A DNA stretch of 49,418 nt from Candidatus Micrarchaeota archaeon (GTDB lineage: Archaea; Micrarchaeota; Micrarchaeia; CABMEP01): the NCBI GenBank assembly GCA_964358895.1, contig CAYHPR010000005.1, positions 1,189 to 50,606 on the forward strand, written 5' to 3'. The position numbers were made by a program, and so were the translations under genes. Below, piece by piece: positions 2,038 through 42,613 of the stretch; within the stretch, counting starts at the first letter, position 1; each line of letters begins with the position of its first letter. Below the pieces are notes generated by a model. That model was given only the letters and a program-made list of their open reading frames with translations, had not been told where the DNA came from and made no database searches.

Positions 2038-2304
2038 ATGGTTGAAGTGAAAATAGAAATGAAGGACAAGCATCATGCAGAAATAACTTTCGTTGGCGAG
2101 GATATCGCTATGGTGAATATGATAAGAAATATCTGTTCCGAAAGTGACGACATTGATTTTATTGCAGTTGTAAAGGATCACCCTGAAGTTGGTCATCCAA
2201 AACTCATAATCAAAGTCAAGAAAGGAAACCCAGTTGCACTTGTAGCAAAAGCAGCCGGAAAGGTCGCAAAGACTGCAGAAGACTTAGGAAAGAAGATGAA
2301 ATAA
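2038..2304 (+). CDS. rpoL: RNA polymerase subunit L (Rpo11)
   Basis: 88 aa, 'GED....N.IR' and 'DHP....PKLII' motifs; GAGGTG RBS; follows csl4. Confidence 0.85.
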   Translation: MVEVKIEMKDKHHAEITFVGEDIAMVNMIRNICSESDDIDFIAVVKDHPEVGHPKLIIKVKKGNPVALVAKAAGKVAKTAEDLGKKMK

Positions 2305-2342
2305 TCGAACTAACTAAAACCGACTAATCGAACTAACTTAAA

Positions 2343-3290
2343 GTGAATCGAGTGGTAGAGCCGAAACCTCATAAACCGGAAAATAAAAAAGAAAATAAAA
2401 AAGAGAAGAAAATAGGAACGGAAGTGGAGGGTTCAGAAGATCTTAGCAAATCAACCATTCTTGTAAAGCTTCAGGATAGTAATCTACTTCTTATCCTTCT
2501 TGTTATCTCATTCATAGCATTTTTAGCCACCAGAGAAATAATGTTTGCAGTCACAACTGGTGCCTTGATCATTTCAGTATTCTTTTTAGACATTATTGCA
2601 GGAATTCAGCGGCACGGTTTCTCAAAGGAACTAATAGAGATTGGAATTGCGGTTATAATCGCGTTGGCAGTATGGTTCAGCCTAGTATTTTTGCTTAACA
2701 CGTCCTCCCCTGTCAGTGCAATTGTTTCCTGTTCAATGTTACCTGCATATGAAAGAGGAGATCTAATCATTTTGCGAGGTGTTCCTCCCTCAGAGATAAA
2801 AGCACAAGCTATCGAGGTTGATCAGAACTCATTAAATGTTATATCAAGTTCATTGCATTCCTCCTGTGGTCAAACGCAATTTGGAATTGATTATCAGTGT
2901 GGAAGTTGCGTAAGAACAAGTATCGCAAGCGGACAACCAGGTCAGGAAAGATTTGTTCAATGTGTCAAAGGAATAAGTGTAAATGGAAAACAGATAAATG
3001 AGGATCTGACAAATGACGTCATCGTTTATACTCCTCAGCAATCATTAAGCAGATTCCAAGGTGATATTATTCACAGGGCTTATGCAAAGCTCACAGCAGG
3101 AAACAAAACTGTAATCCTAACGAAAGGAGATAACAATGATTATTTCGACTCTTCTCTTTTCGGAGCAGTTCCACAAGAGAATGTAAAAGGAAAAGTCCTA
3201 CTGCGTATTCCCTACCTTGGCTATCTTAAACTTTTCATCAGCGGATTCTTCAGCGAACCAGCTGGCTGCGATACAGTCCTGCAGCATTGA
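2343..3290 (+). CDS. Signal peptidase I (S26, Sec11-like) with extra TM helices and Cys-containing insert
   Basis: 'VSCSMLP...RGDL', 'IIHR', 'TKGDNN..D', 'V.GKV..RIPYLG' motifs; start uncertain. Confidence 0.85.
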   Translation: MNRVVEPKPHKPENKKENKKEKKIGTEVEGSEDLSKSTILVKLQDSNLLLILLVISFIAFLATREIMFAVTTGALIISVFFLDIIAGIQRHGFSKELIEIGIAVIIALAVWFSLVFLLNTSSPVSAIVSCSMLPAYERGDLIILRGVPPSEIKAQAIEVDQNSLNVISSSLHSSCGQTQFGIDYQCGSCVRTSIASGQPGQERFVQCVKGISVNGKQINEDLTNDVIVYTPQQSLSRFQGDIIHRAYAKLTAGNKTVILTKGDNNDYFDSSLFGAVPQENVKGKVLLRIPYLGYLKLFISGFFSEPAGCDTVLQH

Positions 3291-6935: not shown

Positions 6936-7088
6936 TGGACCAGGCGAGAGTCGAACTCGCGGCCTCGTCGTGCTTCGGAAACTTTCTTTCTAAGAAAGTT
7001 TCATCAAAGAACTTCCGCTTTTTGATGAAACTTTTTCCCTGAAAAAGTTTCTTGCGAACGGCGCGCTCTACCACTGAGCTACTGGCCC
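6936..7088 (-). tRNA. tRNA-Ala(CGC) with 81-nt intron at 37/38 (intron 6972..7052)
   Basis: Mature sequence GGGCCAG TA GCTC AGTGGTA GAGC G CGCCG TT CGC A|A CGACG AGGCC GCGAG TTCGACT CTCGC CTGGTCC A; G3-U70 identity pair; BHB with central helix TTCG/CGAA and bulges CA|A and GC|A. Confidence 0.95.
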
Positions 7089-39093: not shown

Positions 39094-40260
39094 TTAATTT
39101 GTGGCTAAGATAAATCCAAATAATCCCTCATGACAAGAGCCATCAGGCCAGCAAGCACTGTAATCAACTCGGTATATCCCGTCTCCATCATACGTCAATG
39201 GCGTTTCCAAGTTTAAATTGCTGATTACCACAGTGTTTCCGTTTACAAGTTTTCCATTATGAGTTACATTCATCTTTGATTTTGTATGCAAATTAAAATT
39301 GAAAGTTATTATAACCTTAGATGGTGCCTGCGTTAATGTTTGGCCATGTGGCGGAGTGCTGGACACAAAATGTGCAGCTCTAATGTGATTAAAGTTTATA
39401 CTATAATTTTTTGATGTTGTTTGATTTGATATCACTGGAGTTACATTTGCAACTGTCGTAATATCTGATCCATTAGAAACTATGACTGGCAGAATTGTCA
39501 AAAGTCCATCTTCAATTACAATTATACTGGCAGTCATTCCTGTATGAGCACTGCAGTGATAATGGAATTCGCCAGCTTCATTAAATGTATAGCTATAACT
39601 GCCACTCTCGTTAATCCCTCTAGAATTAAGCGTTTCTAGGTAATTGTGAGATGGATGCGGGTCGCTGTTAACAAAGTGTTCAACTGGATCATTATTGATA
39701 TACGTTACTTTTGTTCCTTTTGAGATAATAATATTTTTTTGCTCAAATTTTATGTCTTTCATTCTTATGGTTATTTCAGACATTCCAGTCATATTAGCAT
39801 AGTCTTTAATTGAAGAGCCATTTACTGCAAAATAGAATTCTCCGTCATGGCATGTTCCATCCGGCCAACAAGCCTTATAGACAACTTTGTACAAACCCTC
39901 TCCTATTTTAGGATCAATATCTACTTCCATTTTTAATCTGTCAGCTAAAATTTTAGTTTCACCCGAAGTAACTTCCGTATTGCCGACAAAGACTTGGATC
40001 TTCGAAGGAGCAACTACGTCAAAATTTGTATTTATCACAATTTTTGTTGGTACTAGAACAAAAGCTTCACCATGAGCCGGTGCACTATCTACAAAATGCG
40101 GCGTTTTTATTTGTTTTAGATCCTGCATCGTTTTTTCAGTTGGTTTTTCAACCATCTTTTCAGATTGTTTTTCCGTTATATTCTGTTGTACGCCCGGAGC
40201 TATACATCCAAAAAGTAAAATAGAAAATATTATAGTAAATATAACATAATACGTTTTCAT
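39094..40260 (-). CDS. Lipoprotein with CopC-like / cupredoxin / CopC-like domains
   Basis: Lipobox-like 'LLFGC'; two 'HFV.S.P.HG...Y.ACWPDG.CH.G' domains; type-1 Cu ligands H...'YHCSAHTGM'. Confidence 0.8.
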   Translation of the reverse strand: MKTYYVIFTIIFSILLFGCIAPGVQQNITEKQSEKMVEKPTEKTMQDLKQIKTPHFVDSAPAHGEAFVLVPTKIVINTNFDVVAPSKIQVFVGNTEVTSGETKILADRLKMEVDIDPKIGEGLYKVVYKACWPDGTCHDGEFYFAVNGSSIKDYANMTGMSEITIRMKDIKFEQKNIIISKGTKVTYINNDPVEHFVNSDPHPSHNYLETLNSRGINESGSYSYTFNEAGEFHYHCSAHTGMTASIIVIEDGLLTILPVIVSNGSDITTVANVTPVISNQTTSKNYSINFNHIRAAHFVSSTPPHGQTLTQAPSKVIITFNFNLHTKSKMNVTHNGKLVNGNTVVISNLNLETPLTYDGDGIYRVDYSACWPDGSCHEGLFGFILATN

Positions 40261-40298
40261 ATTATTGCTTCGTCTTATGCACTTTTAAATATAAGGAG

Positions 40299-40401
40299 GG
40301 CCTCAGCCGAGAATCGAACTCGGGCTCAAAGGTCCACAGCCAAACGAGGGCCTAAGCAATTACTTTGGCTCTTTTCGTGCTACCATTACACCACCGAGGC
40401 C
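40299..40401 (-). tRNA. tRNA-His(GTG) with encoded G-1 and 31-nt intron at 29/30 (intron 40342..40372)
   Basis: Mature sequence G GCCTCGG TG GTGTAATGGTAGCAC G AAA|GG CT GTG GA CCTTT GAGC CCGAG TTCGATT CTCGG CTGAGGC C; BHB with AGC/GCT, central ACGA/TCGT, bulges AA|A and TT|G. Confidence 0.93.
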
Positions 40402-41436
40402 ATGAGTATTCCATTCCCTTATCTTATTTAAATTCTTTGGATTTCGCCAACCTACCAATCTTTGATATCTATCAAAATTTGAATAGCCATATAAATAAAC
40501 ATCCCAAACTCCATTAGATTTTTTATAGAATTTTGGAGCGAACCCCAGAGTTTTAAACATTTTGTAAACTCCTTCTGCAAGATATCTAGATTTACATGTC
40601 AAGCTGATAGTAGGATAATAATTGGCATATCCATAACGTGCTTTAAAGAGAATTGATCCATCAGTATCCATTATCCCTCTTAAAAATGCACATTTAATTC
40701 TTTTGTTTGATTTACTTAAAATTTTAGGAATGTTTATTTTGTCTTTTTTACCGGGCGTTATACCTACACTATTAACTTTAAATTCCCATAATGCTTTTGA
40801 ATAAATCTCAAAACCGTAAGAATCGATATAATCTCGATTTTCAATATTGATGTTATATAAAATTTTATATAGCTTTTTTAGATGGTTGTCGTAGTAATCG
40901 ATTTCATTTGATTTGTCCCCTTTGACTCTAAAATCATACTTATCATTAGATAAAAATCCGTCACCTAGATGAATTCCTATCTCTTCTGCAAGATTTTCAT
41001 CAAGCCACTTTGGAAAAATTATCTTTTTTTCTTTATCCTGCCTTGAGTATTCAATTCCATTTAAATTAAGTTTTAGTCTTCCCTCATCCTTTTTCAATTC
41101 AAAATTTTTTGTTTTAATGCGTGCCTTGCCTAAACGATAACCTTTTTGAAATGGAAAATCACATTTCAATGCAGAGATTTTCCTCCCACGATATCTCGTT
41201 AAGGTTTTATCAATTTTCCAACTACAAATTTCACATATCTTTTTGAACAAACGCATTGGCAAGGTGCATAGTTGATTGGTATACGATTTGAGTGTTCCAG
41301 GGTTTGTTTCAATTAGAACCGCAAATTCATCCCAAGGCATATCCTGTCTTTTCTTTGCATCCTCTAAGAACTTCCTCTGCATTCCCTCTTCAAAATAGAT
41401 TCTATTGAGCTCATTAATCACATATAATGTTAGCAC
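40360..41436 (-). CDS. Double-motif LAGLIDADG endonuclease-like protein with N-terminal HTH-like domain
   Basis: 'LAEEIGIHLGDG' and 'FLRGIMDTDG'; no intein splice motifs; start may be GTG at 41421; last codons overlap tRNA-His. Confidence 0.9.
   Translation of the reverse strand: MLTLYVINELNRIYFEEGMQRKFLEDAKKRQDMPWDEFAVLIETNPGTLKSYTNQLCTLPMRLFKKICEICSWKIDKTLTRYRGRKISALKCDFPFQKGYRLGKARIKTKNFELKKDEGRLKLNLNGIEYSRQDKEKKIIFPKWLDENLAEEIGIHLGDGFLSNDKYDFRVKGDKSNEIDYYDNHLKKLYKILYNINIENRDYIDSYGFEIYSKALWEFKVNSVGITPGKKDKINIPKILSKSNKRIKCAFLRGIMDTDGSILFKARYGYANYYPTISLTCKSRYLAEGVYKMFKTLGFAPKFYKKSNGVWDVYLYGYSNFDRYQRLVGWRNPKNLNKIREWNTHGLGGVMVARKEPK
40425..40432 (-). promoter_or_regulatory. TATA box for intact tRNA-His, inside the endonuclease ORF
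   Basis: TTTAAATA preceded by purine-rich AAAGAA, ending 23 nt before G-1. Confidence 0.6.
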
Positions 41437-41455
41437 GCAAAATTTTTAAAATTAA

Positions 41456-41481
41456 CGTGCTACCATTACACCACCGAGGCC
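41456..41481 (-). pseudogene. 5' fragment of tRNA-His (G-1 through G26)
   Basis: Exact copy of acceptor 5' strand and D arm, with no anticodon arm following. Confidence 0.85.
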
Positions 41482-41534
41482 ATCTATGGTTTATGTTTAT
41501 ATCTGAAAATAAGCGAATATATGATTATCCTTTT

Positions 41535-42551
41535 TTAGACAAGAAACTCTTTCCCAAGTTCTTTTAGCATATCTTGATTTTTATCAAAATATTCTCTTGG
41601 TTTTTTGAAAATGTCTTTCAGTTCTTTTGCAACAGCAGGTTTGAGGTCATTTGGGTGAATCTTCTTGTCAGTGAATGCTTTTGCAAGATCTTCATAAGAT
41701 GCAAAATCGACATTTCCGCCGAATTTTTCAGGTCTTTCAATATTCATTTTTTCTTTTAGCGGGAAGATTATGAATCGGCAGATCTGAGTGATTGGATTAT
41801 CTGTCAGATCTCCAACGGGGCAGTAAGCATTTTTCATTTTCTCTTCGATTTGTTTTTCAGAATCATAAACTTTGATATGACTCTTCGGATCGGTTGCAGA
41901 CATCTTAGTCCCAGGTCCCTTAAGCGAGGAAACAAGAGGCGTCATTATTTCAACACGTGGCTTATAACCAAGTGCTGGCAGGATTTCACGTGCAAAAGCC
42001 ATTATGTGCCTTTGATCCGTTCCACCAAGTTGAATGTCTGCTTCTAAGTATTGTTCATCTAAGGCTTGCATTATCGGATAAATTAATTCAGATACTTTCG
42101 GATTTTTCATCCGTGTCACTTCTGAAGCAGCTCTGGTAGCTCGTCCAACTGTTGCAATTGTTGCTGCTTTAAGCACGTCTACGTGATACTCTTTTTCTAA
42201 TTGAAAATTAGATCCTTTAACAATCTCCGGTTTTCTTTGCCACGGCAAAGAGAGTTCTATGCATTTACTGTAATACTCTGCTCTTTTGTCTATTTCATTC
42301 CATGGAGTTTTCAAATCATCTAAAGCAGCATGAATGTTAGCAAGTAGAATTTTGGTCGAAATTCCAACTTTTTCAAAATCAAATGCTTTACTTAACGGGA
42401 TTAAGTAGGCCATATGGAAAGGTCCAGTTGGTGCCGTTCCGTAATAAGCAGTAAGTTTCTTTCCGGAAGTGATTAGTTCTTCAAGTTCGTTCAGAGTTAT
42501 TATTTCCTCAGTATTTCGCTTTATCAGCTCAATTTTCTCTTCTGTGTCCAT
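41535..42551 (-). CDS. tyrS: Tyrosyl-tRNA synthetase, archaeal type
   Basis: '[13 protein letters not shown]', 'YPIMQALD', 'GGTDQR', KMSAT, 'RPEKFGG', 'HPNDLK'. Confidence 0.96.
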
Positions 42552-42613
42552 ATGGAGATATTCCAAGAAGCCTTTTAAACATATACAGCCAAAAGAATTC
42601 ATTAGTGATTATT

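Follow-up and report, generated by a model that had tools for sequence, protein, structure and literature searches.

A LAGLIDADG gene between a duplicated 5' part and the intact copy of tRNA-His in a Micrarchaeota genome, and the linkage of its relatives to archaeal tRNA genes

The tRNA-His locus

In a 49,418-nucleotide stretch of DNA from a Candidatus Micrarchaeota archaeon (assembly GCA_964358895.1, contig CAYHPR010000005.1; the whole stretch is called the window, and its genome G000), a gene for a LAGLIDADG protein lies between an orphan copy of the 5' end of tRNA-His and the complete tRNA-His gene. An earlier note on this DNA had reported that the tRNA-His 5' end recurs in a perfect 28-bp direct repeat, with copies 1080 bp apart. 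A repeat search bore this out: the copies, at 40376-40403 and 41456-41483, are 100% identical and spaced by 1080 bp, and on our own reading of the sequence they consist of the dinucleotide AT, the nucleotide G-1 of tRNA-His and tRNA positions 1-26. When up to three mismatches were allowed the 28-mer occurred exactly twice in the 938-kb genome, and the reversed control not at all.

The order on the minus strand is a tyrosyl-tRNA synthetase (TyrRS)-like gene, a spacer of 53 nt counted from its stop codon, the orphan 28-nt block, a TATA-like box, the open reading frame (ORF) and the complete tRNA-His. A single family-matched ORF, the double-motif LAGLIDADG gene, is enclosed in the 1080-bp unit; the other ORFs in it, on either strand, are 40-50 aa long. 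The features are as follows.

40299 to 40401, minus strand: intact tRNA-His(GTG), from G-1 (40401) to C73 (40299)
40342 to 40372, minus strand: 31-nt non-canonical intron between tRNA positions 29 and 30, 3 bases downstream of the repeat end
40360 to 41436, minus strand: LAGLIDADG ORF, 358 aa from the GTG at 41436
40376 to 40403, minus strand: repeat copy B, the 5' part of the intact tRNA-His
40425 to 40432, minus strand: TATA-like box TTTAAATA, some 27 nt ahead of the intact tRNA's G-1, read from the sequence
41425 to 41468, minus strand: inverted repeat of the tRNA D-loop/D-stem 13-mer (41456-41468) and an inverted copy (41425-41437)
41443 to 41450, minus strand: TATA-like box TTTAAAAA, directly after the orphan in an A/T-rich stretch, read in the same way
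41456 to 41483, minus strand: orphan copy A, AT plus tRNA-His G-1 to G26, without the 3' part
41535 to 42602, minus strand: TyrRS-like class Ib aminoacyl-tRNA synthetase, a conserved upstream neighbor that lies outside the element and is given as context

The tRNA has an 8-bp acceptor stem that includes G-1:C73, and CCA is not encoded. The Rfam model RF00005 matches 40299-40400 on the minus strand with 40.2 bits against a cut-off of 29. With introns allowed, aragorn calls a tRNA-His(gtg), the sole His among the 25 tRNA calls of the genome; with introns disallowed it does not detect this tRNA. Removal of the 31 nt leaves a stretch of 75 nt (the 72-nt tRNA-His and three trailing bases), of which the acceptor and T arms fold as expected. 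The insert can be folded into an hBHBh' motif (BHB, bulge-helix-bulge): ACGA/TCGT make up its central helix, the bulges are AA|A and UU|G, the outer helix has 5 bp and the inner helix spans 5 positions, one of them mismatched. Its energy is -10.5 kcal/mol, compared to a local minimum free energy of -14.5. By this predicted structure the insert has the features of an archaeal BHB intron. The genome holds no second copy of it, the best other match being 13 nt long. Introns are frequent in G000, a genome of 0.94 Mb: 18 of the 25 aragorn tRNA calls contain one, with inserts of up to 84 nt (a case in the window is at 6936-7088, minus strand). Only 25 tRNAs were found in G000 by either tool, and several were probably missed owing to unusual introns or to the fragmented assembly.

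The center of the TTTAAAAA box lies about 26 nt ahead of an in-frame GTG at 41421, which is the probable start of the ORF. The box is the putative promoter of a leaderless endonuclease mRNA. The earlier note had proposed that the ORF may use the original tRNA promoter; because the ORF has a TATA-like box of its own before the GTG, it need not do so. The second box, TTTAAATA, sits within the 3' end of the ORF, in the codons of a conserved KNLNK (KNLxK is kept in the family alignment), and is the putative promoter of the rebuilt tRNA-His. The two 13-mers of the inverted repeat agree at 12 of 13 positions, the 18-nt spacer between them holds the TATA-like box of the ORF, and the whole folds as a hairpin of -15.2 kcal/mol. 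This hairpin could be an operator, a terminator of the orphan transcript or a repair scar; by eye, none was seen at other loci of the tRNA-His-linked clade described below. Base composition was tried as a sign of foreign origin and set aside, the difference between the unit (29-34% GC) and its flanks (35-41%) being too mild.

Short perfect repeats invite the suspicion of an assembly artefact, which the earlier note had listed among the outcomes that would undo its case. Logan contigs from four runs of four studies (depth 2-5) were therefore compared to the window. Contig X1 record 5 (1166 nt, 0 differences) covers 40747-41912 and so reads across the upstream copy; X1 is perhaps the source sample itself. 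Contig X4 record 9, from a different study, matches 40270-40482 over 213 nt with 0 differences and does the same for the downstream copy. Since contigs of two studies each bridge one junction, the repeat is, as far as these contigs allow, not a product of assembly.

The encoded protein

At E≤0.1 the sole Pfam family found in the ORF is LAGLIDADG_3 (PF14528; E 1.2e-10, residues 248-329). Pfam returned no integrase, recombinase, intein or Hint family, in accord with the earlier note, which had seen no integrase or intein motif. The same note had described the ORF as a helix-turn-helix plus double-LAGLIDADG protein. The double LAGLIDADG part stands, on Pfam and alignment; for the helix-turn-helix there is no family match, and the model has a helical domain in its place. 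A large protein database contains 46 relatives at E≤1e-3, of which the next best is 55% identical. All 20 full-length members in the alignment share G158-D159-G160 and D257-T258-D259-G260 without a substitution; the protein thus has both LAGLIDADG motifs, and the acidic residue of each is conserved.

The AlphaFold model (mean pLDDT, the per-residue confidence, 84.5) comprises a confidently modeled helical N-terminal domain (residues 9-88 or thereabouts), a floppy linker and a two-lobed core (130-346). In the model the core is predicted to form two alpha-beta-beta-alpha-beta-beta-alpha half-domains that together make a DNA-binding saddle. The best Foldseek matches are archaeal intein and intron LAGLIDADG enzymes: the TliVMA intein, I-Tsp061I (E 3.4e-10, TM-score 0.73), PI-PfuI and I-DmoI (TM-score 0.75; both scores by target length). 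WhiA is lower in the list, at ranks 38 and 40. A profile search of PDB sequences agrees with Foldseek on LAGLIDADG enzymes.

As the earlier note had observed, the ORF reads through the 5' part of the intact tRNA and stops in the intron: its TAA at 40362-40360 falls inside 40342-40372. The last 14 residues, HGLGGVMVARKEPK, are accordingly translated from the tRNA 5' part and the intron. This tail is disordered in the model (pLDDT 29) and tails differ among homologues; it is probably meaningless read-through. Rfam, run on the window at the gathering score and on 40200-41600 at E≤10, returned tRNA and neither group I or II introns nor other RNAs. Given the lack of intein or Hint families, the lack of an Rfam intron and the weakness of the BHB candidate for the 1080-nt unit (below), we regard the endonuclease gene as free-standing.

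Empty sites in related genomes

Homologues were sought in 40 other related genomes, eight of them from the same family as G000. The best non-self match to the ORF is 31% identical. In the eight same-family genomes the matches are weak, and most sit in open frames of 1094-1681 aa, as would be expected of inteins.

Two same-family genomes retain the neighborhood without the endonuclease ORF, which supplies the empty sites that the earlier note had asked for. In G002, TyrRS is followed after 57 nt by an intronless tRNA-His; in G001 the distance is about 536 nt and the tRNA-His has an intron after the anticodon. The 29/30 intron of the window is missing from both. Since the orphan starts 53 nt after TyrRS in the window and the tRNA 57 nt after TyrRS in G002, the orphan marks the ancestral site of the tRNA. 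Compared to the family type, the tRNA-His of the window carries one compensated change, U4:A69 versus G4:C69, and G27A together with C43U. The gene is therefore sporadically present at one conserved site that is empty in relatives, the pattern expected of intronless homing.

Linkage of the family to tRNA genes

In many homologues the C-terminal tail looks like a translation of a tRNA-His 5' end, and we therefore retrieved the loci of the homologues: the best 80 of 359 relative-encoding stretches on genome contigs, with one genome per species, and a further 80 on metagenome contigs. A tRNA on the same strand, starting between -60 and +250 nt from the end of the protein match, was found by aragorn at 39 of the 80 genome-contig loci. 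Rfam, applied to 40 of the remaining 41, added four more (L043, L057, L059 and L080), and at 13 further genome-contig loci a convergent tRNA abuts the end of the ORF. Among the metagenome contigs 46 of 80 loci have a same-strand tRNA, and several others leave no room past the match. Nine LAGLIDADG matches of relatives, taken from the 40-genome search, were also scanned; five abut a tRNA, and the frames are 124-354 aa long in eight and 583 aa in one.

A FastTree phylogeny was built from 148 core sequences (13 of 161 rows were dropped for a stop codon in the matched stretch). Labels given by aragorn to intron-bearing tRNAs are unreliable, and those with CTGTGG or TTGTGG at the anticodon position were relabeled as His. 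The window ORF falls in a clade of 27 rows, hereafter the His clade, in which all 25 labeled rows (the window included) lie just upstream of tRNA-His; for the two unlabeled rows, L049 and L127, the tRNA-His was recognized by eye. In sister and other clades the linked genes are tRNA-Arg-GCG, Arg-TCG, Leu-TAA, Ile-GAT and Thr-GGT. The tRNA label changes 29 times on the tree; 200 shuffles averaged 55.5 changes and never gave fewer than 50. The comparison serves as a description and not as a probability, since related sequences share labels. Flanking genes vary among the His-clade loci; the pairing of ORF and tRNA-His is constant. A survey for LAGLIDADG ORFs flanked by tRNA 5' duplications had been suggested in the earlier note. 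The layout of the window is found again among the relatives of the ORF, both beside tRNA-His and, for sister clades, beside different tRNAs.

One member of the superfamily (L099:1-3235) is located within an archaeal gene for 16S rRNA, a gene that Rfam recovers in two pieces. Such a place is the classical one for an intron enzyme, and it shows that the enzymes of rRNA introns are related to the tRNA-linked clades.

Several further observations concern the linked tRNAs. A HisRS-like gene, recognized by eye from its N-terminal motif, often follows the tRNA-His (L038, L041, L042, L044, L049, L119, L125 and others); the pairing tRNA-His then HisRS seems common in these archaea, unlike the TyrRS then tRNA-His order in the family of the window. 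Behind the His-clade ORF of L127 (about 985-1140) we read, by eye, a tRNA-His whose D-loop and T-loop each hold an insert, with a third one after the anticodon. Insert-bearing tRNA genes were missed or mislabeled by aragorn and Rfam at L049, L119, L121 and L128. At L117:2406-2493 and L062:2274-2384 a complete-looking same-strand tRNA, not a fragment, is found directly upstream of the ORF.

The acceptor stems were compared across rows with a correctly placed G-1, aragorn boundaries being variable. In one subclade (L039, L047, L048, L118, L122, L123 and L124) the linked tRNA-His has one or two U-U mismatches, at 6:67 and in some also at 5:68, and T at position 73. Pairing is full in L050, in L045 and in the unlinked tRNA-His of L058 and L100, and L041 has one mismatch, at 7:66. 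The U-U mismatches could reflect 5' and 3' parts of mixed origin, or a quirk of the lineage.

The host genome itself encodes two further LAGLIDADG ORFs. That of L003 (G000:C4:67323-70775; 226 aa) is directly upstream of a same-strand tRNA-Asp and reads into it; that of L002 (G000:C2:83996-87616; 239 aa) lies between opposite-strand tRNA-like genes, one of which resembles a tRNA-Arg(TCG) with extra inserts. Direct repeats of note were not found at either.

tRNA fragments at other loci

To ask whether other loci carry an orphan, the first 45 nt of each tRNA were aligned to the region upstream of its ORF, with cross-locus pairings as controls. In the window the orphan scores 56 against its own tRNA, and the same query reaches at most 20 on the upstream regions of the 39 other loci. 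At L082, L116, L055, L101 and L110 the orphan score exceeds every cross-locus control. L103 also beats its controls, yet the match is to a second complete tRNA-Ser gene and not to a fragment. By inspection, clear 5' pieces are present at three Thr loci (L090, L091 and L095) and at two His loci (L118 and L120). Every clear orphan comprises the 5' strand of the acceptor stem and the D-arm and breaks off where the D-stem ends on its 3' side; a TATA-like box comes next, and about 25 nt further on the ORF. On our own reading, the acceptor strand of the L120 orphan would not pair with the 3' strand of the resident tRNA, which argues against a role of the orphans as exons.

When the upstream regions of 16 His-clade loci are aligned with one another, and only then, a D-arm-like block, GTnTAAy..GnTAGyA, emerges just before the TATA-like box; these 16 were picked from the 27 His-clade loci after the motif had been noticed, and the choice was not blind. 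Upstream of the L118 ORF, 'GGCTGTGGA' was considered as a remnant of the anticodon loop; it overlaps a likely GTG start in the usual family context, and we put it down to chance.

In the convergent class 18 loci were tested for an orphan and only L104 is clear. Here (about 2100-3170) a 24-nt orphan of the 3' part of tRNA-Thr, 22 of 24 nt identical, lies on the far (upstream) side of the ORF, with a score of 38 compared to a shuffle maximum of 24. This layout suggests insertion in the T-arm side of the gene, with the 3' part replaced. A match at L100 is doubtful, being in AT-rich sequence. The head-on arrangement, in which the end of the ORF meets the 3' end of an opposite-strand tRNA, was seen at L104, L060, L066, L069, L073, L076, L084, L089, L094, L100 and L108.

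A proposed mechanism and its alternatives

We think it probable that the unit is a free-standing, homing-type LAGLIDADG cassette that inserted between positions 26 and 27 of tRNA-His and supplied a promoter and a replacement 5' part. Such an element at 26/27 would fit the left border at the D-stem that clear orphans have in common, the promoter-like boxes, the empty sites of related genomes and the clade-specific linkage to tRNA genes. The proposal in the earlier note, a minimal LAGLIDADG element at the junction of D-arm and anticodon stem that would restore the tRNA, thus gains support from the empty sites, the position of the orphan and the recurring layout.

The cassette would consist of copy B together with the 1052 bp that separate the repeats, and would sit in the sole tRNA-His gene. 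Along the tRNA strand one would then read the old 5' part (the orphan), a TATA-like box, the ORF with the second TATA-like box in its 3' end, the new tRNA leader with positions -1 to 26, and finally the old 3' part with the 31-nt BHB intron at 29/30. Insertion at this point splits the gene and leaves a 3' part that lacks both promoter and 5' part, hence the need for the element to bring a promoter and positions -1 to 26. The tRNA would be restored by replacing the severed 5' part and its promoter, not by splicing the insert out. In the mechanism that we infer, the protein would cut endonuclease-free tRNA-His genes near the D-arm/anticodon-stem junction, and repair off an occupied allele would copy the cassette, the old 5' part that becomes the orphan serving as left arm and tRNA positions 27-73 as right arm. 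The old 5' part would remain behind as the orphan. An occupied allele may escape cutting by virtue of the altered sequence beside position 26, that is, G27A and the intron 3 nt away; the 31-nt intron may in this way give the tRNA-His of the window immunity.

A number of observations weigh against this account. Cleavage, target and immunity are all things that we infer. If a target is contained wholly in the tRNA, rebuilding the gene from copy B and the 3' part would create that target anew, and the linked tRNA-His is intronless at 12 of the first 15 loci; because most other linked tRNA-His genes are intronless, the 31-nt intron is not a general answer to the problem of immunity. The perfect repeat alone fits insertion at 26/27 (cassette plus copy B) and insertion just upstream of the tRNA (copy A plus cassette) equally well; we favor 26/27 because the decayed orphans elsewhere end at the D-stem. 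Under strict scoring an orphan fragment beyond all controls is found at just 5 of the 39 other loci, and 33 of the 39 fail. In strict local alignment the His-clade orphans score 12-22 against their own resident tRNA, within the range of the controls; they resemble each other instead, and may therefore be carried with the element or be conserved for another reason, for instance as a protein-binding site. The paralogue at L003 (tRNA-Asp) has no significant orphan: a D-arm match seen by eye was rejected, its score of 13 being reached by 313 of 500 shuffles. No contig of the four Logan runs joins across the 1080 bp as an empty site would, although at depth 2-5 rare alleles are little constrained. 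The tRNA-His type of the host family is seen in the 3' part and in both copies of the repeat, a foreign donor cannot be named, and the nearest homologue of the window ORF is only 55% identical.

The mutual resemblance of the His-clade orphans is what gives weight to a different possibility, namely that the protein is a domesticated, immobile LAGLIDADG protein that binds the D-arm-like block, the tRNA gene, or both, and regulates transcription of the tRNA much as a WhiA-like factor might. The block is kept among His-clade loci even where the resident tRNA no longer matches it, two inverted D-arm 13-mers flank the TATA-like box of the window ORF, WhiA is among the lower fold matches and the protein has an extra N-terminal helical domain. 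Domesticated LAGLIDADG proteins of the WhiA type have lost the catalytic acidic residues. Here all 20 aligned members keep both catalytic motifs unchanged, acidic residues included, the gene is missing from both same-family tRNA-His loci that were read, with no close match in the 40 relatives, and the duplicated piece of tRNA is left unaccounted for; we judge this explanation unlikely. More unlikely still is integration, by a Campbell-type crossover, of a small circle that carried a 28-bp match to the tRNA-His 5' end, whether an integrase element in reduced form or a circle that host enzymes recombined, perhaps aided by an endonuclease cut. Archaeal integrative elements are recognized by direct repeats of part of a tRNA, and such repeats are present at the borders here, a perfect 28-bp repeat fits a single crossover, and a parallel exists in the tRNA-Thr 5' fragment of Caldiarchaeum (as described in the available part of PMC3293823). 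Such an account has to contend with the lack of a recombinase (the sole family-matched ORF of at least 60 aa wholly inside the unit is the LAGLIDADG gene) and with the finding that one ORF lies between orphan and tRNA at 24 His-clade and nine further loci that were viewed.

The earlier note had offered, as its own alternative, a very large excisable tRNA intron. On that account the 1080 nt would be a single BHB intron, or a step towards a split tRNA, with copy A as the real 5' exon and with a splicing endonuclease that would take out all the RNA as far as the equivalent point of copy B, in a host that has many intron-bearing tRNAs and a good BHB at the 31-nt intron. Enumeration of all equivalent cut positions for a 4-bp central helix left one weak candidate: the palindromic GGCC at G-1 to C3, present in both copies, could form the central helix, and of four self-pairing 4-mers it alone has flanking helices, which are of 2 and 4 bp and partly G-U; a relaxed motif would be compatible with the sequence. 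Against this, copy B with its own TATA-like box is already a complete gene, the orphan has decayed at other loci and at L120 its acceptor would not pair, and no group I intron or other RNA family is found in the unit at E≤10. We accordingly set aside the large intron as the main explanation and regard it as very unlikely. The least likely of all is an artefact, or a duplication or gene conversion that happened locally by accident and has nothing to do with the endonuclease. Assemblers can create short perfect repeats, and these are metagenomic data at low depth; two studies' contigs nevertheless bridge one junction each with 0 differences, and the layout recurs across many unrelated assemblies.

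Relation to known systems

With the archaeal LAGLIDADG enzymes of introns and inteins (I-DmoI, I-Tsp061I, PI-PfuI and the VMA inteins) the window protein shares the two motifs, the acidic residues and the predicted fold, and those enzymes likewise target highly conserved RNA or protein genes. It differs from them in an extra N-terminal domain of about 120 residues, and its ORF lies outside any group I intron or intein and probably outside any BHB intron. Where their host genes are restored by RNA or protein splicing, the host gene here would be repaired by a duplicated part with its own promoter. In the accessible part of a survey of archaeal group I introns, all 39 surveyed are in rRNA genes (PMC6125680).

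Insertion into a tRNA gene, a rebuilt tRNA and a repeat or orphan at the other border are also found in SSV1- and pNOB8-type elements and in the case of Caldiarchaeum. In the latter, by the available part of the report, 1.8 kb separate the gene from a tRNA-Thr 5' fragment upstream of it, a predicted recombinase lies in between, and the gain of an intron in the tRNA is tied to the element (PMC3293823). The cassette differs from the SSV1 and pNOB8 types in that it has no integrase or recombinase, is about 1.05 kb long, contains one LAGLIDADG ORF and belongs to a family with clade-specific linkage to many tRNAs.

Endonuclease genes outside introns are familiar from phages, and SegB lies within the tRNA gene region of T4. 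The Seg and Mob genes of T4-like phages are free-standing, sporadic and, to go by the accessible parts of the papers on mobE (PMC2790892) and SegB (PMC13096335), thought to spread by cutting neighboring endonuclease-free alleles, into which repair then copies them. They encode GIY-YIG or HNH enzymes, lie between genes and do not duplicate a part of the target; the present genes are cellular, archaeal and of the LAGLIDADG type. In the atp6 gene of Allomyces, a mitochondrial endonuclease ORF enters the end of the gene and brings a replacement copy of the displaced end. There too a mobile unit substitutes the severed part and the old part is left as a fragment; it is, however, the 3' end of a protein gene, fused in frame, whereas here it is the 5' part of a tRNA and a promoter is needed as well. 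Synthetic 'cleave and rescue' drives direct a nuclease against an essential gene and link it to a working version of that gene. A natural element of the kind proposed here would rescue only part of the gene, and resistance of the rescued copy is conjectural. LAGLIDADG genes tied to tRNA genes with duplication of tRNA parts are undescribed in the full-text literature that we searched, in which subscription journals are thinly covered.

Significance

The interpretation of the locus has widened from a single case to a superfamily, for which the proposed mechanism is plausible. To RNA splicing and protein splicing it would add a third means by which a homing endonuclease gene can reside in an essential gene, namely an element that carries a promoter and a substitute for the part that it severs. 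A superfamily in small-genome archaea that is tied clade by clade to tRNA genes also implies many natural meganucleases with targets the size of tRNA genes. For genome annotation, ORFs that run into tRNAs and stray 5' fragments of tRNAs in DPANN genomes would share one explanation.

Orphan 5' pieces that keep the old upstream region, together with introns adjacent to the junction, are the proposed raw material of split and intron-rich tRNAs, and the link between mobile elements and the disruption of tRNA genes becomes testable on defined loci. A bolder idea, conceivable though doubtful, is that the cassettes act as natural 'cut and rescue' drives on single-copy tRNA genes and that the BHB intron of the window, brought in by the cassette 3 nt from the junction, makes the rebuilt gene uncuttable. 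If true, LAGLIDADG cassettes would recurrently give rise to non-canonical tRNA introns, to orphan halves with promoters and later to split tRNAs in DPANN archaea, and there would be direct evidence that disruption of tRNA genes protects against mobile elements.

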